In this document: positions 5,065 to 18,185 of the stretch, one piece after another
Position numbering within the stretch: position 1 is the first letter of the stretch
How the letters are laid out: each line of letters begins with the position of its first letter
Source: Promethearchaeota archaeon
Lineage (GTDB): Archaea; Asgardarchaeota; Lokiarchaeia; Sigyniarchaeales; SOKP01
Assembly (NCBI GenBank): GCA_048940445.1
Contig: JBHLON010000046.1
Coordinates: 1 to 19,365 of the forward strand
Direction of reading: 5' to 3'
DNA length: 19,365 nucleotides
The notes under the pieces: generated by a model
The model's database searches: none
What the model was told of the DNA's origin: nothing
Seen by the model: only the letters and a program-made list of their open reading frames with translations
Position numbers and translations under genes: made by a program

Positions 5065-5799
5065 ATGAGCTTTAAAGATAAACTTAAAGAATATAAACAT
5101 AAAAATGATTTGATTGAGGAATTACAATTATATGAATCAATGATTTCAAAAAAGATTGAAAATCACGATTATAAATATGCTTTAAATAAAGTCGAATCTG
5201 CTATAACTCTAATCAAAGAAAATCAACAAACTTTTAATCTGGAACCTGAACTATCAGAATTAAATAGTTTGCGGGAAAAAATAATAATTAAAATTAATAA
5301 ATATCAGAAATTTTATCAAAGACGATATCGTAATTTATTAAAAGAAACCTTGACAGAGGCAAATATAGAGAATTTTTTAAAACTATTAGCTATGTTAAAA
5401 GATGAAGTTGATGAAAATATAAATAATTATAAGCTAACTGAGCTCGCTGATAAAATAAATAGATACTTCAACTTTTTAAAAAGATTGTATGCAATAATTA
5501 ATTCTTATAAGATCTTACATTATAAAGGGGCTCTAGATAAAATCTTAGAATATGTTAGATTAATTAAAAATGAAAATTATCCCAATATTAAAGCATTAAT
5601 TTTTCGCATTTATCAAAATCTACTTAATTTGCAATTCTATTATTTAGCAAAAGAATATCCAAAATTAACCATCACAGAATTATCAAAAAGATTAGCTATT
5701 AATCAGGAAAGTTTAACAAACCTTCTGGATTTGATTATGAAAAATCCTGATTGCCCAATTAAAAAGTATAATATGCAAACTCAAGAAATTATTTTCTAA
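5065..5799 (+). CDS. Hypothetical helical protein with C-terminal PCI-like winged-helix domain
   Basis: Helical, charged N-terminal ~185 aa. The C-terminus YPKLTITELSKRLAINQESLTNLLDLIMKNPDCPIKKYNMQTQEIIF matches the PCI winged-helix pattern (Y-x2-I/L-x-L-x2-LA-x2-L ... terminal beta hairpin ending in F). The ORF is solid; the domain call is by eye. Confidence 0.6.
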   Translation: MSFKDKLKEYKHKNDLIEELQLYESMISKKIENHDYKYALNKVESAITLIKENQQTFNLEPELSELNSLREKIIIKINKYQKFYQRRYRNLLKETLTEANIENFLKLLAMLKDEVDENINNYKLTELADKINRYFNFLKRLYAIINSYKILHYKGALDKILEYVRLIKNENYPNIKALIFRIYQNLLNLQFYYLAKEYPKLTITELSKRLAINQESLTNLLDLIMKNPDCPIKKYNMQTQEIIF

Positions 5800-5800
5800 C

Positions 5801-6715
5801 TTATAAACCACGGGAAAACTCAGGTCTTAGTACATTAGGGTGAGTTAAGCCATAATTTATTGTATTTAATATAACATCTTTGTCTCTGTCTAATATCCCC
5901 TTAATTGGTAAAAAATTGCTTGCATGGTTACTCCTAAACACACAATTTGCCTTCTTATTTTCAAATTTAATATTCTTTATGAATAACTTTAATTCTTTAA
6001 GAATTTCTATTGAATTCATTTCTTCAAATTGACCTTCCCTTTGTTTCTCATAAATAACAGTACCTGTAGGGATCATGAGAGTCAAAAATGCTATATACCA
6101 AATTCTATCATCTATAGGGCAAATTTTATTTACTAAATCAGCAGATTCAGTAGCATGCTTTTTTGAAACCTCCGGATTATTTGATCCTCCAAGTCCGTTT
6201 ATAAATGTCGCTGATAATGTAATATTAGCTTTCATCAGCCTTTTTGATGCTTTAATATAGTCCGCTTTAGTGGCATGTTTATTAATTTGCTTTAATAAAA
6301 AATCATATCCTGATTCAAAACCTACATAAGCAATTTTAAGTCCAGCGTCTGATAATGACTTTAGTTGAGCATCAGACTTTTTTATAATATCAAGTGCATG
6401 AGCATATACTCCCACTCTTTCTAGTCTTGGAAATGCTTCCATGGCGTATTTAGTTACTTCTAATAGCTTTTCGGCAGGAGTAACCATAGCATTTCCATCT
6501 AAAAAAAAGATCTTACGTACTATAGAACCATACTGTTTTTTTGCTATATCTAAGTCTTTTTTCACATTCTCTACTTTTCTAATTTTAAAATCTTTCCGTA
6601 AATTTGATACGCAGAAATCACAGTGATAAGTACATCCTTCTGTTAATTGGATTAGTAATGAATTAGCTTCGCTAGGTGGACGAAAAACAGGATGGCAGTA
6701 ATATATACTTTCCAT
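5801..6715 (-). CDS. Radical SAM protein (RPPSEA-type family, function unknown)
   Basis: FRPPSEANSLLIQLTEGCTYHCDFC (CX3CX2C), FFLDGNA, YVGFESG, FRSNHASN. ATG at 6715 preferred; an in-frame TTG lies at 6721. Confidence 0.88.
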   Translation of the reverse strand: MESIYYCHPVFRPPSEANSLLIQLTEGCTYHCDFCVSNLRKDFKIRKVENVKKDLDIAKKQYGSIVRKIFFLDGNAMVTPAEKLLEVTKYAMEAFPRLERVGVYAHALDIIKKSDAQLKSLSDAGLKIAYVGFESGYDFLLKQINKHATKADYIKASKRLMKANITLSATFINGLGGSNNPEVSKKHATESADLVNKICPIDDRIWYIAFLTLMIPTGTVIYEKQREGQFEEMNSIEILKELKLFIKNIKFENKKANCVFRSNHASNFLPIKGILDRDKDVILNTINYGLTHPNVLRPEFSRGL

Positions 6716-6755
6716 ATACAAGAACTTCTATATGATTTTTGACCATTTCTTTAGA

Positions 6756-7457
6756 TTAATCTTCTTCTTCCTCATCAGTATCTTCACCCTCTTGTGGTCT
6801 TTTAGGGCATGAATTAAGATGCCGTCCTAATCTTACAAACTCTTTACCACAGTAAGGACATACTTTTTTACCTTTTCCCTCGTCGGTTCCAGATTTAGAT
6901 TCTTTAGATTTTGTTATTTTTTTCTTTTTCTTCCGAGGTAATACATCTTCAATACTGACATCATCAGGGGCGAATTCACAAGTTGGGATATGCGCTCTTA
7001 AATCATCGACGATTTCTCCACAGAACGGGCATTCTAAGTCTCCAAATTCTTGAGAAACACCTATTTCATCTTTCCCTACTTTCCTTTTTTCGAATTTTAC
7101 TGGTTCTTCCGCTTCTTCTTCTTCAAACTCATCAATTGTTAAATCAACATCATCTTCTCCAGTTAATTCCTTATATTCAAAATCTTCTAATTCAATCTGT
7201 TTTTCTAAAATCTTTTTTTCAGCACTTTTTCTACTATCTTCATAAACCTCTTGTGTCTTTCGATTCGATTTCACAGGGTCATAAATTGCACATACTTGAC
7301 AAATATATGCTCGTCTTCCGAGGATCAAATCCCTTTCAGGACAAAAACACAGTGGTTGAAGACTATTAGAAATATTACCCATTGATTCTAAGTGTTTGCA
7401 AGCGATTTTTCTAGAATATTTAATTTTTTGCTTTCGACGTGGTATAATAATCACCAA
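6756..7457 (-). CDS. Acidic/basic low-complexity protein with two C2HC (CX2CX9HX3C) zinc fingers and an N-terminal Cys/His cluster
   Basis: CPFCGEIVDDLRAHIPTC (aa143-160) and CPYCGKEFVRLGRHLNSC (aa200-217), N-terminal CKH...CFC...CQVC, acidic tract, PRKKKKK, acidic tail. The start is uncertain because TTG/GTG overlap a GGTGA SD-like site; ATA at 7445 is possible. Confidence 0.8.
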   Translation of the reverse strand: MVIIIPRRKQKIKYSRKIACKHLESMGNISNSLQPLCFCPERDLILGRRAYICQVCAIYDPVKSNRKTQEVYEDSRKSAEKKILEKQIELEDFEYKELTGEDDVDLTIDEFEEEEAEEPVKFEKRKVGKDEIGVSQEFGDLECPFCGEIVDDLRAHIPTCEFAPDDVSIEDVLPRKKKKKITKSKESKSGTDEGKGKKVCPYCGKEFVRLGRHLNSCPKRPQEGEDTDEEEED

Positions 7458-7534: not shown

Positions 7535-9061
7535 TTAATAGTTATAATTTATAGACTTGAGATCATTTATTACTTTCTCTCTTATTTTACTATGTGTTAT
7601 ATACGGCAAAAGTTCGTCTACCAAATCCCTCAATTCAATTATCTTCTCAGTAAGTAATTCAGGCTTACTCCAGAGAGATTTCCTTAATGGATGGTTTTGG
7701 ATTAATGCTTTATTATAATTTTCAATAGCTTCTTTGTAGAAAAGGGAAGCACTGTCGTAATTTTTAAGTCTTGTTTGATATATTGTAGCAATTTTATTAT
7801 AACTCATACCTGCTCCTGCGTAATCTCTTTCTTTTTCAAAATATATAGCAGATTTTTCGATTTTTTTTAGAGCATCTTTTAATATTTGCTGATCGCCTGT
7901 TTTTAAGGAGATATATCCTATGATATAGCTCGCAACACCTAGATAAAACCTACTATCATATTTTTTGGAAAAATCATATAATTCATCAGCAAATTCTTCT
8001 GCTAAAACTAAATGATTATTTGAAATACATAATTTCGCTACATTTCTTAATAGTTCTAAGACTCGGTCAATATTACCCAATTTGTTATATTTGGCAATAC
8101 CTTGTCGATATTTTTCAACTCCAGTAAATGTATCTTTACGCTGAAAAGCTTGGTTACCTTCATATATCAAAAGTTCAGCTTGTTCTTCAGATTTATTTGA
8201 AAATAAATCGTCCTCTTGCTGTGAACTATCATAAAAAAGGTTTTTAAAACCAAATGATAAATCTTCCTCAATTGGAATTTCTACTAAATCCTTAGGTTCA
8301 GTTCTGATGTCTATTTCAGACATATAGTTTTGATCATTTAAGTCTTGCACATCTTTATAATTTGAATCTAATTTGAGCTCCTCTTTGTAAGCAGATTGTA
8401 AGGGTTTACCAGAAGAAACTAAAGCAGATAATTCAGACAAAACATTAGCAAAGAAATACTTATTTAGCCCTTTAACCATATAATCAACTTTTTGATAATT
8501 ATTTTCAAATTCTGGAACATTGGGATTCAAATTTACGTCTTTCAACCTATAAATTTCAAATCCAGTATCATATTTAGTGAGAACATTATCACCAATTGTC
8601 TCTTCTTTCTTTTTTCCTAATAAAGTGTGATCGAAAACTAACCCAATAGCATCATTATATTTTGCTTGAAATCCTAGTTGATTTATGAGATCTACATAGG
8701 AAAAAAATAAAGATAAACCCGGATGAGAATGAAACCAGCCTACAATAAATTGGCCCTCTCCTTCTGCATCTAATTGTTGCTGTATCTCATCAATAAATAT
8801 ATAATGTCGTTCATCTAGGTTTACATCAGTATCATGCCCAAAAGTAAGTGCGTGTGCTTTTTCTACATAAACAAAATCATCATCAGAGTAGCCAGTTAAA
8901 ATCCCATATATTTCTTTCCAATCTTTAGGTGGGATCGCTTGATTTGAATACCTACTGGCATATAATATTATTGTTTTATAGGCTTCTGCTTTAATAATTA
9001 CAGGTTTACTTATTACTTCTTCTAATTCTTCTTTATTTTCTTTTTCAAACTCTTCAGACAT
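7535..9061 (-). CDS. MPN+/JAMM metallo-isopeptidase (Rpn11/CSN5-like) fused to a C-terminal TPR/alpha-SNAP-like helical repeat region
   Basis: E50 in KEIYGILTG and VGWFHSHPGLSLFFSYVDLINQ give an intact E...HxH-x7-S-x2-D motif (H111, H113, S121, D124), followed by LVFD. An acidic linker leads to TPR-like helix pairs (EGNQAFQRKDTFTGVEKYRQGI; YAGAGMSYNKIATIYQTRLKNYDSASLFYKEAIENY). Confidence 0.88.
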   Translation of the reverse strand: MSEEFEKENKEELEEVISKPVIIKAEAYKTIILYASRYSNQAIPPKDWKEIYGILTGYSDDDFVYVEKAHALTFGHDTDVNLDERHYIFIDEIQQQLDAEGEGQFIVGWFHSHPGLSLFFSYVDLINQLGFQAKYNDAIGLVFDHTLLGKKKEETIGDNVLTKYDTGFEIYRLKDVNLNPNVPEFENNYQKVDYMVKGLNKYFFANVLSELSALVSSGKPLQSAYKEELKLDSNYKDVQDLNDQNYMSEIDIRTEPKDLVEIPIEEDLSFGFKNLFYDSSQQEDDLFSNKSEEQAELLIYEGNQAFQRKDTFTGVEKYRQGIAKYNKLGNIDRVLELLRNVAKLCISNNHLVLAEEFADELYDFSKKYDSRFYLGVASYIIGYISLKTGDQQILKDALKKIEKSAIYFEKERDYAGAGMSYNKIATIYQTRLKNYDSASLFYKEAIENYNKALIQNHPLRKSLWSKPELLTEKIIELRDLVDELLPYITHSKIREKVINDLKSINYNY

Positions 9062-9167: not shown

Positions 9168-9686
9168 TTAGATTTTGTAGTGTTTTGCTTTTTCTGCCAT
9201 ATCGAGTATTCTTTTGGCAAAATCTAAATTAGGCACTATTTCTAATGCTTTTTCTAAAGCCTTAATCGAATCTTCGTATAATTTTTTATTAAAATACGCT
9301 GAACCTAAATTAGTCCAAACCACCTCATCTTTTGGATTGAGTTTCAAAGCAATTTTACAAGTTTTAATTGCTTCATCAAAATTTTTCATATCAACATAAA
9401 TAGAACTGAGTTCTGACCATGAGATTGCTAAATTGGGATTAAGATCGATAGCTCGCATTAAAGCAACAATAGCTTTTTCATAATCTTCAATTTCATAATA
9501 TAAATATCCTAAATTATGCCAGTTAATTGCTTCATTTGGATTAAGGTCTAGCCCTTTATTGTACGCTTCAATAGCTTTCACAATGTCATTTGCTTGAAAA
9601 TACAAAAAACCGAGCTGGATCCAATCATTTGAATCAGAAGGATTAATTTCTAGTTTTTTTTTTAAATCTTCAATCTTCTTTAACAT
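9168..9686 (-). CDS. Tetratricopeptide repeat protein (4 canonical 34-aa TPRs)
   Basis: Four consecutive 34-aa units, W..LG..Y......A...A...A..L.P, ending LNPNE, LNPNL, LNPKD and IVPNL. Confidence 0.93.
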   Translation of the reverse strand: MLKKIEDLKKKLEINPSDSNDWIQLGFLYFQANDIVKAIEAYNKGLDLNPNEAINWHNLGYLYYEIEDYEKAIVALMRAIDLNPNLAISWSELSSIYVDMKNFDEAIKTCKIALKLNPKDEVVWTNLGSAYFNKKLYEDSIKALEKALEIVPNLDFAKRILDMAEKAKHYKI

Positions 9687-9704: not shown

Positions 9705-10262
9705 TTATTTTTCAGAAATGGATTTTATGAAACGATTTTTAATTTCTATTGGAAGCAATGGTATATTGTTTACTTCAGCATTACCTGGTTCAGCTTTAAT
9801 CAAAATAAAGTGACACCCTTTACCTAAATTTGTTATAACTTTTTTTATATCCTGAAATTGTGTAATTTTAATTACAGACTTGAATCCAGCCCCTTTTGCA
9901 ATGATATCTAATCTCGTTTCCTTACCTGTGTATGTCATTTGATCCCCCGTAGAGCCATATGATGCATTATCTATTACTATTAAAGTTAAATTAGAAGGGT
10001 TTACATTGGCAATTGTACTTAAACTGCCAAGGTTCATCAGTAATGATCCATCTCCTTCTAAGCACCATACTTTTTTCATTGGTTGAGAAATGGCAAATCC
10101 AAGCGCAATGGAAGATGCTAAGCCCATTGAACCCATCATATAGAAATTTTGAGTACGATCCTTCAGATGATATAATTCTTTAGATGGAATCCCAATATTA
10201 CATATGATAAATTCATCTTTCACTATTTCTACAATAGCTTTTAATACCTCGAATCTTCTCAT
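9705..10262 (-). CDS. comE: Sulfopyruvate decarboxylase subunit beta (TPP-binding C-terminal module)
   Basis: ICNIGIPSKELY, NFYMMGSMGLASSIALG and TPP motif GDGSLLMNLGSL...DNASYGSTGDQ. Overlaps comD by ATGA (translational coupling). A split phosphonopyruvate decarboxylase is the alternative. Confidence 0.85.
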   Translation of the reverse strand: MRRFEVLKAIVEIVKDEFIICNIGIPSKELYHLKDRTQNFYMMGSMGLASSIALGFAISQPMKKVWCLEGDGSLLMNLGSLSTIANVNPSNLTLIVIDNASYGSTGDQMTYTGKETRLDIIAKGAGFKSVIKITQFQDIKKVITNLGKGCHFILIKAEPGNAEVNNIPLLPIEIKNRFIKSISEK

Positions 10263-10759
10263 TTAGAATCACTCCACAAGGATTTTTGTAAGAGAACACC
10301 GGCAGAATGGCTACTTCTTTGACTATATGAAATTGCTCCTTTGAGTTTATTAATCTCATTCTTGGATTTTATAGACCAAGATTTAATTCCCATTAATTTT
10401 AATAATTTTTTAGTAATACTTCCCATTGGAATCTGTGCTAAGATTTCCTCACCTTTCCCTCCTCTATGACTGATAATAAAGATTATTGGGATGTTATATA
10501 AACCTAATAAAGATTTAATTGCATTAACTGAGTTTCCCAATCCTGAATTTTGCATTAACATAACGGGGCTTTTTCCACCCAAATAAGCACCAGCTGCAAT
10601 ACCTATTCCTTCTTCTTCACGTGTTAAAGGGATATGTAAAATTTCTTTTCTTTCATTAATTAAATTTAAAAGACCTTTTAGTAAAATGCAAGGTACAGAA
10701 AGAATGATATTGATTCCGGAATCTTTTAGAATTTTGTATAACTCAAAATCAATTTTCAT
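10259..10759 (-). CDS. comD: Sulfopyruvate decarboxylase subunit alpha
   Basis: SVPC, LTREEEGIGIAAGAYLGG, MQNSGLGNSVNA, SHRG and AQIPMG. 166 aa, paired with comE. Confidence 0.85.
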   Translation of the reverse strand: MKIDFELYKILKDSGINIILSVPCILLKGLLNLINERKEILHIPLTREEEGIGIAAGAYLGGKSPVMLMQNSGLGNSVNAIKSLLGLYNIPIIFIISHRGGKGEEILAQIPMGSITKKLLKLMGIKSWSIKSKNEINKLKGAISYSQRSSHSAGVLLQKSLWSDSK

Positions 10760-10839
10760 AAAGCTAAGTGATTTAGTTTTATTTAGCTATAATCATTAGT
10801 ATATAAACAACTAAAAACTTTTTTTTATAAAGGATTGAA

Positions 10840-12102
10840 TTGAAAGCGCTTCTCTTTGACTATAAATTTTCCCGCCTTGCTAGTGCAAAGTTATTAGGAA
10901 TATTCTCTAAAAGAGGTTATCTCTCAAGATGTGGTCCTTTGAAATTGAATGATTTTGAAAAGCCAATTATTAAATTAAACGATTGGTGTATTGTAAAGAC
11001 AAAATTCTGTGGGATATGTGGCTCAGATCATAAACAAGTCTTCTTAGACGGAAATATAGATAATCCAATGACAGCTCTTATCTCATGGCCACAAATACTT
11101 GGACATGAAGCAGTTGGTGTAGTTGATAATCCTGGGAAACTTTTAGACCTCAAAAGAGGAGATAGAGTTGCATTAAACCCTTGGATTAGTTGTGAACCTC
11201 GAGGAATTGAACCTATATGTTCATCATGCAAAGAAGGTAAAAAGTCGTTATGCAGAAACTTTACTAAGGGAGCATTAAGTCCTGGTATTCATACTGGAAA
11301 TAGTAGAGACGCGACAGGAGGTTTTGCAGAATTTTTTCCCGCTCATAAGATTATGGCAATTCCAATCCCTGATTATATAAGCTGGGACCAAGCAGTTTTA
11401 TCAGATCCGTTCTCAGTTGCCTTTCATTCAATTTTGAAGGTAAATTTACAACCGAATTCAATATGTGCAGTATATGGTTGTGGAAATCTAGGGTTGTTAA
11501 CAATTCATCTGTTAAAAAATATTTTTGAAGAAATAACTGTAATTGCAATTGCTAAATTCTCCCATCAAGCAAATATGGCAAAAAAATTTGGGGCAGATTA
11601 CATTATCAAGTCATCACCACCTTATAAGATAATAGAACGGGTAGCAGATTATCTCAACTGTGAGATTTATTATTTAAAAAAGAAAAAGCCATGGTTAATT
11701 GAAGGAGTCGATATTCTTTTTGACACAGTTGCATCATCTGAAACAATTGAGACAGGATTAAGAATAGTAAAAGCTCGAGGCAAAACATCAAATATGAAAA
11801 AAAATTATTCAAGCGCTATTGTTGTAACTGGCGTTTCAGCACCTAAGCGCTATGAATGGACGCCGTGGTACTTTAAAGAAATAAATATTATAGGAAGTAA
11901 TGCTTTTGCTATAGAAGAATTCAAAAATGAAAGAACACATGCGTATTATCATTATTTCCGTTTTATTAGGGAAGGTAGAATTGATCCTTCTCCCATGATT
12001 ACTCATAAATTTTCATTATCCCAATATAAGAAAGCGTTTTTGGCAGCACATTTTCCAGAAAAATACAATGCAATTAAAGTAGTATTCAAATTTGAAGGGT
12101 AG
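10840..12102 (+). CDS. Zn-dependent medium-chain dehydrogenase/reductase (threonine/sorbitol dehydrogenase-like), paralog 1
   Basis: CGICGSD, GHE, structural Zn site C-EPRGIEPI-CSSC-x7-C, Rossmann motif YGCGNLG, C-terminal ITHKFSL...IKVVF. TTG start after AGGA. Confidence 0.9.
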   Translation: MKALLFDYKFSRLASAKLLGIFSKRGYLSRCGPLKLNDFEKPIIKLNDWCIVKTKFCGICGSDHKQVFLDGNIDNPMTALISWPQILGHEAVGVVDNPGKLLDLKRGDRVALNPWISCEPRGIEPICSSCKEGKKSLCRNFTKGALSPGIHTGNSRDATGGFAEFFPAHKIMAIPIPDYISWDQAVLSDPFSVAFHSILKVNLQPNSICAVYGCGNLGLLTIHLLKNIFEEITVIAIAKFSHQANMAKKFGADYIIKSSPPYKIIERVADYLNCEIYYLKKKKPWLIEGVDILFDTVASSETIETGLRIVKARGKTSNMKKNYSSAIVVTGVSAPKRYEWTPWYFKEINIIGSNAFAIEEFKNERTHAYYHYFRFIREGRIDPSPMITHKFSLSQYKKAFLAAHFPEKYNAIKVVFKFEG

Positions 12103-12119
12103 AAGAGAAGTAGAATAAG

Positions 12120-13379
12120 ATGAAGTCAAAAAGCAATGAAGAAAAAATAGAAGCGTTAGTTTTTGAAATGAAAAAGTTCAAGCTTCTAAAAGCATACATT
12201 ACTGGTAAAATAAGTAAGACAAAGTACTGGAAAAAAGGTGGCCCTATTAGCATAAAGAAGATGCCTCTTTTAAGCCTTCCCAATGAAGATTGGATACGAG
12301 TTAAAACTATTTATTCTGGGATATGCGGGAGTGATATGAAAGAATTAACTTTAAGCGGATCATTTGACAATCCTTTAAGGACTTTTATCTCTTTTCCACA
12401 AATAATGGGCCATGAAGTAGTTGGCACTGTTTCTGAAGTTGGAACCAATGTTTCTGAGTTTAAAATAGGAGATAAAGTGGCTATAAATCCTTGGTTTTCT
12501 TGCGAGCCAAGGGGAATTAAACCTATTTGCTCTCGTTGTCATGAAGGAGATTATACTCATTGTAAAAACTTTCAAAAAGGTCTTTTACCAATTGGTATGC
12601 ATTTAGGGGTGACCAAAGGTTATGGAGGTTTTGCTCCTTATGTACCTGTACATAAATCCCAATGTTTTATTATCCCTGATGGAATAAACCTAGAACAAGC
12701 TGTATTAGCGGACCCATTTTCTGTTGCTTTTCATTCAAATTTACTTTTAAACCCTGAGCCAAAATCGACAATTCTAGTATATGGCATAGGTATTATAGGA
12801 TTACTATCAATAATTTGTTTAAAAAATTTATTTAATGTAAAAAATGTATTAGCTATTGGAAGATATTCCTTTCAAAAAGACTTGGCATTAAAGTTTGGGG
12901 CACAACATGTATTTATGAGTAGAGGCGAACAATTAATTGAAGAAATTGGAAATCTTATGAATATTGAGCTTTACACGCCTGAACGGGGTCTTAAATGGGC
13001 CTTAGACGGACCAAATGGAATTATTGATACAATCGCTTCTTCAGAGACTCTAGAGATTGGTGTTCGCATACTCAGAACTCAGGGAAAGTTGGTTTTTCTA
13101 GGAGTTAGTACCCCAAGAAGATGGGAAAACACTCCTCATTATTTTAAGGAACTTGAAATTATTGGATCTAATGCCTTCTCAATCGAAAAGTTTGAAGAGA
13201 AGAAAGCACATGCATTTGAATTTTTTCTTAATTTTCTAAAAGAAAAAAGATTTGACCTAACCCAATTAATCACTCATAAATTTACTCTAAAGAATTATCA
13301 AAAAGCATTTAATGTTTTAATCAGAAAAGGAGAATCTAAAGCAATAAAAGTTATTTTTGATTTTACTTCTCAAGTTTGA
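12120..13379 (+). CDS. Zn-dependent medium-chain dehydrogenase/reductase, paralog 2
   Basis: SGICGSD, GHE, C-EPRGIKPI-CSRC-x7-C, YGIGIIG, ITHKFTL...IKVIF. Colinear with the upstream paralog, 17 bp gap. Confidence 0.9.
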   Translation: MKSKSNEEKIEALVFEMKKFKLLKAYITGKISKTKYWKKGGPISIKKMPLLSLPNEDWIRVKTIYSGICGSDMKELTLSGSFDNPLRTFISFPQIMGHEVVGTVSEVGTNVSEFKIGDKVAINPWFSCEPRGIKPICSRCHEGDYTHCKNFQKGLLPIGMHLGVTKGYGGFAPYVPVHKSQCFIIPDGINLEQAVLADPFSVAFHSNLLLNPEPKSTILVYGIGIIGLLSIICLKNLFNVKNVLAIGRYSFQKDLALKFGAQHVFMSRGEQLIEEIGNLMNIELYTPERGLKWALDGPNGIIDTIASSETLEIGVRILRTQGKLVFLGVSTPRRWENTPHYFKELEIIGSNAFSIEKFEEKKAHAFEFFLNFLKEKRFDLTQLITHKFTLKNYQKAFNVLIRKGESKAIKVIFDFTSQV

Positions 13380-13460: not shown

Positions 13461-14390
13461 TTAAGGAATAGTCTCTTTTTTTTTCCTTTTCATTTTAGAA
13501 CCTCCTCCACCACCCCCAATTCCCGAGAGATCAATACCCCCAGTCTCTCCACAAATAACAGCTAATACAATAATAATAAGAACTACTACGACAATAACAA
13601 CGGCAACTACAAGTGCTAACAATAATAGACCTTCAACTTTATAAAAAATGTATATCCATGGTTCATTTTCATTTTTCTGCACTGCTTTAGCACCATAAAA
13701 CATTATTACTAGAGAAGCAATGAGGAGATAAGCTAATGTTATAGGGATTGTTAATAAGAAATTTTGAATATTAAAAATAATAATAAATAATAACTCAAAT
13801 ATCGCTGTCCCTATAAGAAAAATAATGATATGTGCCCATAAATATCCTTTTGCAAAATATTTAGCTCTCAAACTATAAGCCATTAAGGCTACTATAAGTG
13901 TCGCTCCAACTGTTAAAGTAACGAACATATGAACTTGGGGTAAGAATTCTGTCAAAATTATTATAGGAAGACTAATAATTCCTGCTATGATACAAAATAT
14001 AAAAAAAATACTAAGCCCTAAATATTTCTTATTAGCCTTTGACACAAAATAAAATAATGTAAACAAACCTCCCTCAACAATTAAAAAAATAATATAAATA
14101 GTCAAAAACATAGTAGTAAATTCAAAGTCTCTAAATACAAAGCTGAAAACTATTTCACTAGCTAACCAAATAAGGGAACCAATTATCAAAATAGGTAAAA
14201 TTTTATGTAAGAAAGTATTACGTTGTGGTAATGTAAGCAGATATTTTGACTCTCTTTTAGAAATACTTTTATTTATCACTTGTAAATTGGACTTCATTTC
14301 AATATTTTGTTCTACAGGCTCACCACAATTAGTACAATATTGATTTTCTTTTTTTAAAGGAGCACCACATTTTGTACAGTATTTACTAAT
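13461..14390 (-). CDS. Double zinc-ribbon + Bax inhibitor-1/YccA-like multi-pass membrane protein
   Basis: The track ORF (ATG at 14297) extends upstream in frame without a stop through SKYCTKCGAPLKKENQYCTNCGEPVEQNIE. The likely start is ATT at 14390, 7 nt downstream of GGTGA (14402-14398). The body has about 7 hydrophobic segments with BI-1-like spacing (FFIFCIIAGIISLPII; TLTVGATLIVALMAYSLRAKYFAKGYLW). Confidence 0.7.
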   Translation of the reverse strand: MSKYCTKCGAPLKKENQYCTNCGEPVEQNIEMKSNLQVINKSISKRESKYLLTLPQRNTFLHKILPILIIGSLIWLASEIVFSFVFRDFEFTTMFLTIYIIFLIVEGGLFTLFYFVSKANKKYLGLSIFFIFCIIAGIISLPIIILTEFLPQVHMFVTLTVGATLIVALMAYSLRAKYFAKGYLWAHIIIFLIGTAIFELLFIIIFNIQNFLLTIPITLAYLLIASLVIMFYGAKAVQKNENEPWIYIFYKVEGLLLLALVVAVVIVVVVLIIIVLAVICGETGGIDLSGIGGGGGGSKMKRKKKETIP

Positions 14391-16492: not shown

Positions 16493-17569
16493 ATGATTGA
16501 AGATTTCCTTAACAGAGAAAAAATGGTTATTGATAGTGAATTAGAAAAATATTTCAACCATCTCGATGAAATTGAAGATGAAATTCTATTAAAAGATTTT
16601 ATTTCCCAATTAAGAGAATTTGTGCTTAATAAAAAAGCAAAACGGTTGCATCCCATATTGTTAATCGCCAGCTTCACTGGAATTATAAATCCAATTTATT
16701 TAAATGAACAATTGGATCAACTTAGGAAAGTTTCTTTAGCAATGGAATTACTACATAGTGGGCATATAATCCATGATGATCTTATAGATGAGGAAGAAGA
16801 GAGAAGATCTAAACCAACATTTCACATCCAATTGACCAAAGAATTAGAAAAAATGTATAAAAATCTCGATTTTGTTCATAAAGAAGATTTTATAAAACTG
16901 TATGGGAGAGATATGAGCATCTTAGGTGGAACTCATGGATATTTACTCGGACTTAACGTACTTAAAAATTCAAAATTTCCTGATAATTTGAAGTTACTTG
17001 CAATTAATGAATACACTGACGCAATGGATTTTTTGATCAAGGGGCATATTGTTGAAGAATATATGCATTATCATAATTTAACAATGACATTGGAGCAGTA
17101 TCTTAATATAGCTGAAATGCAAAGAGCAAGATTATTTGAAAAATCTGCTAAAATAGGAGCAATATTGGCTAGAGGGAATTTACATTATCAGATAGAACCA
17201 TTGAGTGAAGCCCTACTAAGAATTGGACAAGCTTCTGCTATTCGAGATGATATACTGGATATGAACAGTGATATAAAAAGTAAGATAAAGAAAAATTTTG
17301 TATATATCTTAGCTATTCAAAATTCAAATGAAGATCAATCTAAACAATTAAATGAAATTTATCATAAAGATAAATTATCAAAGGATGATATAAAGATTGT
17401 ACAAAACATATTTGCAGAAACAAATTCAGTTATTACAGCAGAACACTTTTCAAAAAACTTAGTTTCTCAAGCAAAAAACTTCTTGAAAGACATTTATCCA
17501 GATCTTAATAAAGAACAAAAATTGTTCTTCAATGAATTCGCGGATTATATCTATATGAGGGAATTTTAA
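16493..17569 (+). CDS. Trans-isoprenyl diphosphate synthase (polyprenyl synthetase) family protein, divergent
   Basis: AKRLHP (cf. GKRLRP), ELLH, FARM HDDLID...RRSKPT and SARM RDDILD. Several other conserved motifs are altered. Confidence 0.85.
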   Translation: MIEDFLNREKMVIDSELEKYFNHLDEIEDEILLKDFISQLREFVLNKKAKRLHPILLIASFTGIINPIYLNEQLDQLRKVSLAMELLHSGHIIHDDLIDEEEERRSKPTFHIQLTKELEKMYKNLDFVHKEDFIKLYGRDMSILGGTHGYLLGLNVLKNSKFPDNLKLLAINEYTDAMDFLIKGHIVEEYMHYHNLTMTLEQYLNIAEMQRARLFEKSAKIGAILARGNLHYQIEPLSEALLRIGQASAIRDDILDMNSDIKSKIKKNFVYILAIQNSNEDQSKQLNEIYHKDKLSKDDIKIVQNIFAETNSVITAEHFSKNLVSQAKNFLKDIYPDLNKEQKLFFNEFADYIYMREF

Positions 17570-17582
17570 ATTCTCTTTTGCT

Positions 17583-18185
17583 TTATAATACTACAAAATT
17601 ACATTTCTGCTTTTTAAGCATTAGATTGCTCAATTTTTTGAAAACTTCTACAACATTATAGTTTTCTAATGATGATGTTTTGTAAAAAGCGTCTATCCCT
17701 TTTTTTACAACAAAATCATTTATCAATGCAACAGGAACTATCTCTTCCCGGGGTGTATTTTCAACTAAATCGAATTTACTTCCTACTAAAATTTTTGGAA
17801 TATTGGATCCATTGGCATGTTCTATCAATTGATTATTCCAAAAGTCTAATTGTGCAAATGTATTCTGATTTACCAAATCAAAAACTAAAAGTGCTCCGTT
17901 AGCACCACTTAAAAATTTTGGAATTAAAGGTTTGAATCTATCTTGGCCTCCAAAATCGAAAATTGAATTATTTATATAATTTTCCCCTGACTTATCAATA
18001 CGATCTTGATGATTTATCTTCAGATTTATTGAATGAAAATTAATACCAATAGTCATTGATGTGTCAAAATTGAATGAGTTAAAACAAAATCTATTAAATA
18101 AACATGTCTTTCCGGCAGATGGCCCTCCAACTATAACAGTTTTAAAGTTAAAGATTACGCTCCTTTCTTGTTCTTGAACTCTCAT
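17583..18185 (-). CDS. Rab-like small GTPase (Ras superfamily)
   Basis: G1 GGPSAGKT, G2 MTIGINF, G3 DFGGQDRF, FLSGANGALLVFDL, G4 variant SKFD, G5 TSS. Confidence 0.92.
   Translation of the reverse strand: MRVQEQERSVIFNFKTVIVGGPSAGKTCLFNRFCFNSFNFDTSMTIGINFHSINLKINHQDRIDKSGENYINNSIFDFGGQDRFKPLIPKFLSGANGALLVFDLVNQNTFAQLDFWNNQLIEHANGSNIPKILVGSKFDLVENTPREEIVPVALINDFVVKKGIDAFYKTSSLENYNVVEVFKKLSNLMLKKQKCNFVVL

Follow-up and report, generated by a model that had tools for sequence, protein, structure and literature searches.

A JAMM protease on a TPR arm in Lokiarchaeia: a probable stand-alone isopeptidase outside the Rpn11/CSN5 clade

The gene described here comes from a genome of the Lokiarchaeia and lies within a window of 19,365 nucleotides, the whole stretch of DNA that was analysed. 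It encodes a JAMM protease domain tethered to a helical arm of TPR type, and we refer to it as JAMM-TPR. The features of the gene and of its neighbours are as follows.

7535..9061, minus strand: JAMM-TPR gene, a single uninterrupted open reading frame of 508 aa
8417..9007, minus strand: MPN+/JAMM domain including the post-core helix (aa 19-215), from Pfam JAB, AlphaFold2 (AF2) and Foldseek
8912..8914, minus strand: catalytic Glu50, invariant in the family
8690..8731, minus strand: zinc motif H111-x-H113-x7-S121-x2-D124, invariant
8813..8848, minus strand: Ins-1-equivalent loop (aa 72-83), role by analogy to CsRpn11 (PMC6043591)
8564..8617, minus strand: beta-hairpin (aa 149-166) inserted at the Ins-2 position, specific to the family
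8207..8416, minus strand: linker, acidic, disordered and poorly conserved (aa 216-285)
7706..8206, minus strand: TPR-like region (aa 286-452) of four helical hairpins, each about 40 residues long, LGN/KLC/TPR_12 type
7538..7705, minus strand: cap, the H457-P-x-R460-x3-W464 loop plus two helices, signature of the TPR-plus-cap module
6756..7457, minus strand: syntenic downstream zinc-finger gene, with an N-terminal Cys-rich domain, an acidic region and one or two C2HC fingers
5801..6721, minus strand: radical SAM gene, the usual syntenic neighbour
5065..5799, plus strand: convergent gene for a 244-aa helical (PCI-like) protein with a winged-helix-like end
9168..9686, minus strand: upstream gene for a protein of 34-residue TPRs, adjacent only in part of the genus

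A promoter and terminator scan gave signal at chance level. Elsewhere in the window, positions 9705-13379 hold a two-gene TPP-enzyme pair, probably sulfopyruvate-decarboxylase-like, and two tandem zinc-dehydrogenase-like genes, a set that suggests a sulfonate-metabolism cluster. Positions 13461-14297 encode a membrane protein that matches Bax inhibitor-1 weakly (E 0.003) and has a basic tail rich in Gly, and a similar gene adjoins JAMM-TPR in several relatives. The window also encodes a Rab-like GTPase preceded by a fused N-terminal domain of roadblock/longin-like appearance, judged by eye (119-1207), a second small GTPase (17583-18185) and a polyprenyl synthetase-like protein whose first motif (HDDLIDEEE) diverges and which has unusual insertions (16493-17569).

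In the AlphaFold2 model, about aa 20-215 of JAMM-TPR adopt an MPN fold, aa 216-285 are disordered (pLDDT below 50) and aa 286-508 form a helical solenoid, and the low pTM of the whole protein (0.48) is consistent with two domains on a flexible tether. The C-terminal domain folded alone reaches a pLDDT of 95 and has ten helices, with four hairpins (about 40 residues each) followed by a loop and a two-helix cap. An initial annotation, made from the letters of the DNA, had described an acidic linker followed by helical repeats, and both the solenoid and the charge of the linker (18 D/E versus 7 K/R) bear this out. It was also right that protease and helical arm form one polypeptide: the 508-aa query has 371 matches, the 120 listed ones span 90-100% of it, and open frames of about 500-700 aa occur in well over 100 genomes, so the fusion is not an assembly artefact. 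The annotation did not recognise this architecture from eukaryotes; we likewise found no eukaryotic or published equivalent, and no description of it in the literature searched, whose coverage was incomplete.

The catalytic motif had been read as complete, with the positions correctly given, and it is conserved: E50, H111, H113 and S121 are kept in 120/120 listed homologues, and D124 in 119 with one gap. Pfam JAB matches aa 19-132 (E 4e-12, 46 bits against a cut-off of 22.5), and Foldseek aligns the MPN domain with Rpn11, CSN5, BRCC36 and CsRpn11, each at a probability of 1.00. The family profile scores 85 bits with CsRpn11, 62-72 with Rpn11, 62-64 with CSN5, 44-55 with BRCC36 and 37-42 with AMSH. 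As a single query, the protein gives 30-46 bits to Rpn11/CSN5 (35-46 to Rpn11) and 15-16 bits to AMSH, for which the profile gives about 40. Identity with the desampylases was rejected, as their model (JAMM1, NF041370) yields 14.4 bits against a curated cut-off of 130. By similarity, then, the domain ranks as Rpn11-grade and closer to Rpn11/CSN5 than to JAMM1/desampylases, which upholds the earlier impression that its motif context lies nearer Rpn11/CSN5 than stand-alone prokaryotic JAMMs. Published work likewise places Asgard JAMMs between Rpn11, BRCC36 and AMSH (PMC6043591).

The Ins-1-equivalent loop is conserved, with G75, T78 and V80 invariant in the family alignment, and by analogy it is the expected, putative binding site for the C-terminus of the tag. 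The hairpin at the Ins-2 position is limited to the host family and is short or absent in deeper orthologues, which indicates that it was gained independently of the eukaryotic Ins-2. The yeast Rpn11 alignment extends to aa 246 of JAMM-TPR, probably by chance, since this stretch is not kept in deeper relatives. Two further candidates were discarded: an HbYX proteasome-docking tail, as Asn occupies the penultimate position and deeper orthologues lack the tail, and an EMC2-EMC8/9 "Rosetta stone" idea, as UPF0172 matches only deeper paralogues and not JAMM-TPR itself. EMC2 is not among the listed fold matches of the helical domain, an absence that by itself carries little weight.

The MPN tree (75 rows, a short alignment of 174 columns, LG+C20) was rooted on two short JAB proteins as outgroup, and its eukaryotic rows were retrieved with a CsRpn11-like query. 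It contains no BRCC36, AMSH or true JAMM1/2 sequences, and the inactive paralogue, three rows with long branches and a number of redundant ones were removed. The JAMM-TPR clade, query included, has support of 100/100 above a backbone that is not resolved. A phylogeny of this kind had been suggested in the initial annotation, and its outcome cuts both ways: JAMM-TPR lies far from the short prokaryotic JAB proteins, but it is nested in a 30-row clade made up only of Lokiarchaeia paralogues (98/98), apart from eukaryotic Rpn11 and CSN5, which form a clade of their own (100/99). A forced clade of JAMM-TPR with eukaryotic Rpn11/CSN5 is rejected (AU p=0.003), and the anchoring helices RPN11_C and CSN5_C (PF23594 and PF18323), detected in the eukaryotic rows compared, have no match in JAMM-TPR at E<=0.1. 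Membership in the Rpn11/CSN5 orthologous group was rejected on these grounds. More Rpn11-like JAMMs exist among Asgards, including an E2-linked paralogue on contig C70 of the same genome (53-56 bits) and a CsRpn11-like protein of another Asgard class (about 80 bits to Rpn11). Of the earlier label "lid-like", the Rpn11-grade similarity thus stands, but the missing tails, the rejected clade and these closer Asgard proteins speak against the rest. From its sequence, the enzyme appears to be a lineage-specific cousin of the eukaryotic proteasome-lid enzyme and not its forerunner.

Rpn11 and CSN5 act as MPN+/MPN- dimers within PCI complexes, and the neighbouring genes bear on whether JAMM-TPR could be the catalytic subunit of a comparable proto-lid or COP9-like complex with the PCI-like, zinc-finger and TPR proteins. 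The zinc-finger gene lies directly downstream at each of the 30 family loci examined and is generally followed by the radical SAM gene. In several genera a convergent PCI-like gene adjoins the cluster, and one 26S proteasome chain is among the structural matches (9m2w_X, Z 16.1). However, the PCI-like gene is found in only 6/30 genera, and its profile, run on four JAMM-TPR genomes, found nothing in three and a weak 55-residue match to another protein in the fourth, so the protease is kept where no PCI-like gene is detected. The zinc-finger gene is commoner than the protease: it occurs in 19/19 genomes from the order's other three families, unlinked in some, and is retained in 10 genomes of family f3 in which no protease TPR was detected. 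Together with the lack of detectable lid-anchoring helices and the AU result, this makes such a complex rather improbable. As the zinc-finger gene is wider, the PCI-like gene patchy and the upstream TPR gene local, the cluster represents synteny without shown co-inheritance. The zinc-finger protein is single-copy throughout the order, with C20, C39, C53 and C56 of its Cys-rich domain invariant; this domain has no Pfam match and no usable Atlas match and was not found in other orders. A single complex prediction of the TPR domain with this Cys domain scored 0.01 and counts neither for nor against an interaction. An MPN- gene and PCI-like matches are present elsewhere in the host genome.

The C-terminal repeats had been likened to alpha-SNAP/Sec17 on the basis of a segment that corresponds to aa 411-449, and this comparison did not survive. 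The domain has stacked hairpins with the small-residue/aromatic pattern of the TPR superfamily. Its best VIA-align matches are LGN/Pins (Z 18.5-20.2, rmsd 2.9-3.6) and a Deinococcus TPR protein (17.9-18.9), followed by NASP (16.6-17.5) and by RapI and BtubC (about 16.5-16.7), with the SNAPs lower (Sec17 Z 16.1-16.4, rmsd 5.4-5.9; gamma-SNAP 15.6). The top alignments are Z 20.2 for LGN (rmsd 3.4, 182 aligned) versus Z 16.4 for Sec17 (rmsd 5.9, 204 aligned). In Foldseek, a comparison that the initial annotation had itself proposed, LGN, Sec17, NASP and KLC are interleaved at indistinguishable E-values, so the resemblance of the arm to SNAP does not exceed its resemblance to other 40-residue TPRs, an outcome that the initial annotation had named as refuting its reading. 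Sequence searches point the same way: consensus TPRs, Sti1 and an Rgg protein score above alpha-SNAP (E 0.04), the nearest sequences after the family itself among 1.84 billion representatives are long TPR_12 proteins (median 1045 aa), and Atlas searches agree with the TPR placement. Identity to LGN/Pins, kinesin light chain, Rap/Rgg and TPR_12 solenoids is 10-16%.

Could the C-terminus nonetheless be an alpha-SNAP homologue that recruits an AAA ATPase (NSF, Cdc48 or PAN) and couples tag removal to unfolding or disassembly? Sec17 (Z 16.3) and gamma-SNAP (15.6) do appear in the fold searches, with rank 2 in Foldseek, and Pfam SNAP (PF14938) matches 35/53 family members at E<=0.01. But Rgg_C matches more of them (42), and the SNAP match of JAMM-TPR itself reaches 22 bits (24.7 for the domain alone), below the 25-bit cut-off, and spans about 70 of 282 model positions (19-88). 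Thirteen other stretches of the same genome match the SNAP model better, and long multi-domain TIR/AAA/CHAT-TPR proteins reach 89-119 bits on it, which explains how the repeats came to look SNAP-like. The SNAP-type acidic tail and penultimate Tyr are also absent from the sequence. We rejected alpha-SNAP homology and regard this adaptor role as extremely unlikely; recruitment of an AAA ATPase by the arm, as first proposed, finds no support. The helical domain is an ordinary long-repeat TPR (about 40 residues, TPR_12-type), not specifically a SNAP. What can be kept of the idea that the protease carries its own recruiting scaffold is its general sense, which is plausible, but not the SNAP form of the arm. 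Besides packing residues, the top conserved feature is the HPxR-x3-W loop, in which H457, R460 and W464 are kept in 16, 18 and 19 of 21 diverse orthologues, respectively, and conservation suggests H457-P-x-R460-x3-W464 as a candidate binding surface. A two-carboxylate clamp was also considered and dropped, as the alignment, inspected by eye, has no conserved Lys/Arg set at those positions.

The TPR-plus-cap module is not confined to the protease. It occurs with a TIR_2 head in P0193 (E 8e-82) and P0252, with a zinc ribbon and DUF4062 in P0200, with LRR in P0203, with a zinc ribbon in P0219 and behind an unknown head in P0198. In P0215, an 815-aa protein on a contig of Logan SRR28370465, it follows a Cys/His/Asp pattern that looks papain-like by eye only; this gene lies directly upstream of a 569-aa JAB gene, itself adjoining a radical SAM gene, and its placement suggests a local duplication. 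In a module tree whose bootstrap had not fully settled, the nine non-JAMM rows, two of them possibly fragments, fall at scattered positions within the JAMM-TPR family. Starred branches force at least five changes, and TIR-type head fusions arose at least three times. Re-used with varied heads and nested in the family tree in this way, the module behaves as a portable unit. P0203 occurs on five contigs, P0193 on two and P0200 on a 157-kb MAG contig. Some of the fusions could be assembly chimeras. None appeared as a second copy in 161 genomes, indicating that they are rare.

Prokaryotic TIR-TPR, SIR2-TPR and CHAT-TPR proteins are immune proteins of the sensor-effector type, and JAMM-TPR might be thought to work likewise, its TPR sensing a ligand such as a viral or stress protein and switching on the JAMM head as an effector. 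The repeated fusion to TIR-type heads and the LRR fusion fit this idea, as do the TIR/AAA/CHAT-TPR proteins that are the nearest outside relatives of the arm and the peptide-sensing Rgg/Rap/PlcR folds among its matches. We nevertheless consider it unlikely, because JAMM-TPR is single-copy and syntenic, with about 57-65% identity across most genera of the host family, unlike patchy defence genes, and the non-JAMM fusions are rare and derived.

The distribution of the arm suggests an old association with the protease. Searched with a C-terminal domain profile, 131/161 genomes of the class have a match, always as a single copy (in one case the gene is divided between two contigs). The matches come from 123/134 genomes of the host family and from 1/1, 4/14 and 2/4 in three other families of the order, with none in 7 genomes of other orders. 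One more orthologue, a divergent one in the fourth family, is matched at a probability of 97.9%, and the fusion probably arose at the base of the order. Almost all of the named homologues come from MAGs labelled Promethearchaeota or Lokiarchaeota, and a few carry other Asgard labels. JAMM-TPR was not found in three single-contig genomes, one of them taken as Ca. Lokiarchaeum ossiferum (PMC9834061). The gene thus looks dispensable in some lineages, and that culture would be unsuited to its study.

The host genome encodes ubiquitin-family proteins, E1-like and E2 genes, and seven JAMM/MPN genes. Two other JAMMs sit with E1, E2 or ubiquitin-like genes, on contigs C110 and C70 (the start of C70 appears to continue C68), and sister paralogues in the same clade as JAMM-TPR adjoin an E2 gene at loci L051 and L056. 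JAMM-TPR itself lies outside such operons, among zinc-finger, radical SAM, TPR and TPP-enzyme genes. A stand-alone ubiquitin-family gene on contig C62 (G000:C62:34908-35162, locus L063) encodes a protein ending in GG plus Ile. It is present in 136/161 class genomes, with identity of at least 90% in most of the family and about 70% across the class, and one or two extra residues often follow the GG (21 of 30 loci fetched). Such a tag needs a processing protease and has none adjacent, which makes it the leading candidate tag for JAMM-TPR. It is also kept in the three single-contig genomes in which JAMM-TPR was not detected, so JAMM-TPR is not its obligatory processor and at most one of several. 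On contig C68 (G000:C68:31156-33716), two ubiquitin-family proteins end in AG, not GG, and have acidic N-terminal extensions; one of the genes directly precedes an E1-like gene, and a third ubiquitin domain ends a membrane protein encoded between the two.

Among the paralogues, the same type of MPN domain bears other arms, including a coiled coil, an apolipoprotein-like arm and TPR plus winged helix, as would be expected if the arm sets the target. Several related proteins were seen in passing. Tandem MPN genes on long helical tails (G000:C134:10628-13489; loci L003, L006 and L112) comprise one copy with an intact zinc motif and one with HSR for HSH, which resembles an active/inactive pair, and the inactive copy is found in 46/49 family genomes. 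In L054:3882-5549 and L087:961-2622, a single TPR-JAMM-winged-helix chain has the JAMM domain inserted in a PCI-like domain order. A JAMM domain with a degenerate motif is fused to an apparent type II/IV secretion-type ATPase at L100:1435-3327 (G309). In other orders of the class (L049, L050, L052, L053, L057 and L058), proteins of 580-600 aa join a JAMM domain to a different helical domain with two conserved Cys, and end in an invariant PEP-x-F-[YF]-P that fits or resembles the HbYX proteasome-docking motif. Their genes are divergent from moaC/moaB/moeA and lie beside a 2H phosphoesterase gene. The C-terminus of these proteins is not detectably homologous to the JAMM-TPR arm (probability 1.4%).

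These moa neighbours touch on the possibility that JAMM-TPR acts not on a ubiquitin-type tag but on a MoaD/SAMP-like sulfur carrier or some other specific protein, in connection with its radical SAM or cofactor neighbours. The synteny with radical SAM and the several MoaD-like GG proteins in the host genome are compatible with it, and the related JAMM-helical genes of other orders lie beside moaB, moaC and moeA. There, however, the moa genes are transcribed divergently and the JAMM proteins have another type of C-terminus, the host MoaD-like proteins already end in GG, and JAMM-TPR is distant both from short prokaryotic JABs in the tree and from the desampylase model. We consider such a substrate quite improbable.

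We favour, as probable, the reading of JAMM-TPR as a stand-alone isopeptidase for ubiquitin-like tags in which the TPR arm serves as an address module, with a predicted activity, substrate and ligand. The known JAMM mechanism has zinc held by two His and an Asp, a water activated by Glu, and a cut after the last Gly of the tag, which is placed by Ins-1 (PMC6043591). JAMM-TPR would thus be a soluble, Zn-dependent isopeptidase, derived from a Lokiarchaeia-specific paralogue expansion, that cleaves after the C-terminal Gly of a ubiquitin-like tag, most plausibly the C62 protein, to strip conjugates, and possibly also trims tag precursors. On its flexible linker of about 70 residues, the TPR-plus-cap arm may bind a partner or substrate peptide and bring the protease to its clients, addressing the enzyme rather than inhibiting it. 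Counting against this reading are the place of the gene outside ubiquitin operons, the three single-contig genomes that keep the tag but in which the gene was not detected, and its constant zinc-finger and radical SAM neighbours, which have no shown link to ubiquitin.

More tentatively, and with the odds against it, one may picture the arm as a portable Lokiarchaeal address module for one conserved partner, fused to a JAMM domain in the ancestor of the order and re-used to bring TIR, LRR and cysteine-protease heads to the same site. JAMM-TPR would then be one arm of an archaeal radiation of targeted deubiquitinases, in which a genome has six or seven JAMMs and each of these bears a different arm, independently paralleling the eukaryotic division of labour among Rpn11, CSN5, BRCC36 and AMSH.

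Asgard Rpn11-like JAMMs were already known, and to our knowledge the archaeal deubiquitinases studied to date are small, single-domain and encoded in ubiquitin operons. New here is that the SNAP reading and a clade with Rpn11/CSN5 are both rejected, and that the TPR-cap module has been re-used behind other heads. JAMM-TPR provides neither an archaeal SNAP nor a proteasome-lid ancestor. Like eukaryotic Rpn11 and CSN5, it has the MPN+ fold and motif context, but the eukaryotic proteins belong to a separate clade and carry C-terminal tails not detected in it. With alpha-SNAP/Sec17, its arm shares the broad class of helical-hairpin solenoids (Z about 16) and lacks the SNAP-type acidic tail. LGN/Pins, kinesin light chain, Rap/Rgg and TPR_12 solenoids are the best structural and sequence neighbours of aa 286-508, and unlike LGN/Pins-type solenoids the module ends in the family-specific HPxR-x3-W loop and a two-helix cap. 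The best solved match of the protease domain, CsRpn11 of Ca. Caldiarchaeum subterraneum (PDB 6FJU, 6FJV and 6FNN; PMC6043591), is likewise a soluble archaeal protein with the same catalytic set, Ins-1 loop and post-core helix. It differs in being about 200 aa long, without TPR and encoded inside a ubiquitin operon, whereas JAMM-TPR has an extra insert after helix 1, the insert at the Ins-2 position, the linker and the TPR arm. As a compact, expressible protein, JAMM-TPR offers a test case for the origin of specificity in the archaeal ubiquitin system, and the family suggests that Loki-type Asgards evolved substrate- or site-targeted JAMMs by arm swapping, apart from eukaryotes. In AMSH/STAMBP, a JAMM domain and a helical targeting domain (MIT) are combined in one chain. 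The TPR arm of JAMM-TPR may select its site much as the MIT domain targets AMSH, an analogy in how the two would work, given their weak similarity, opposite domain order and different arms.
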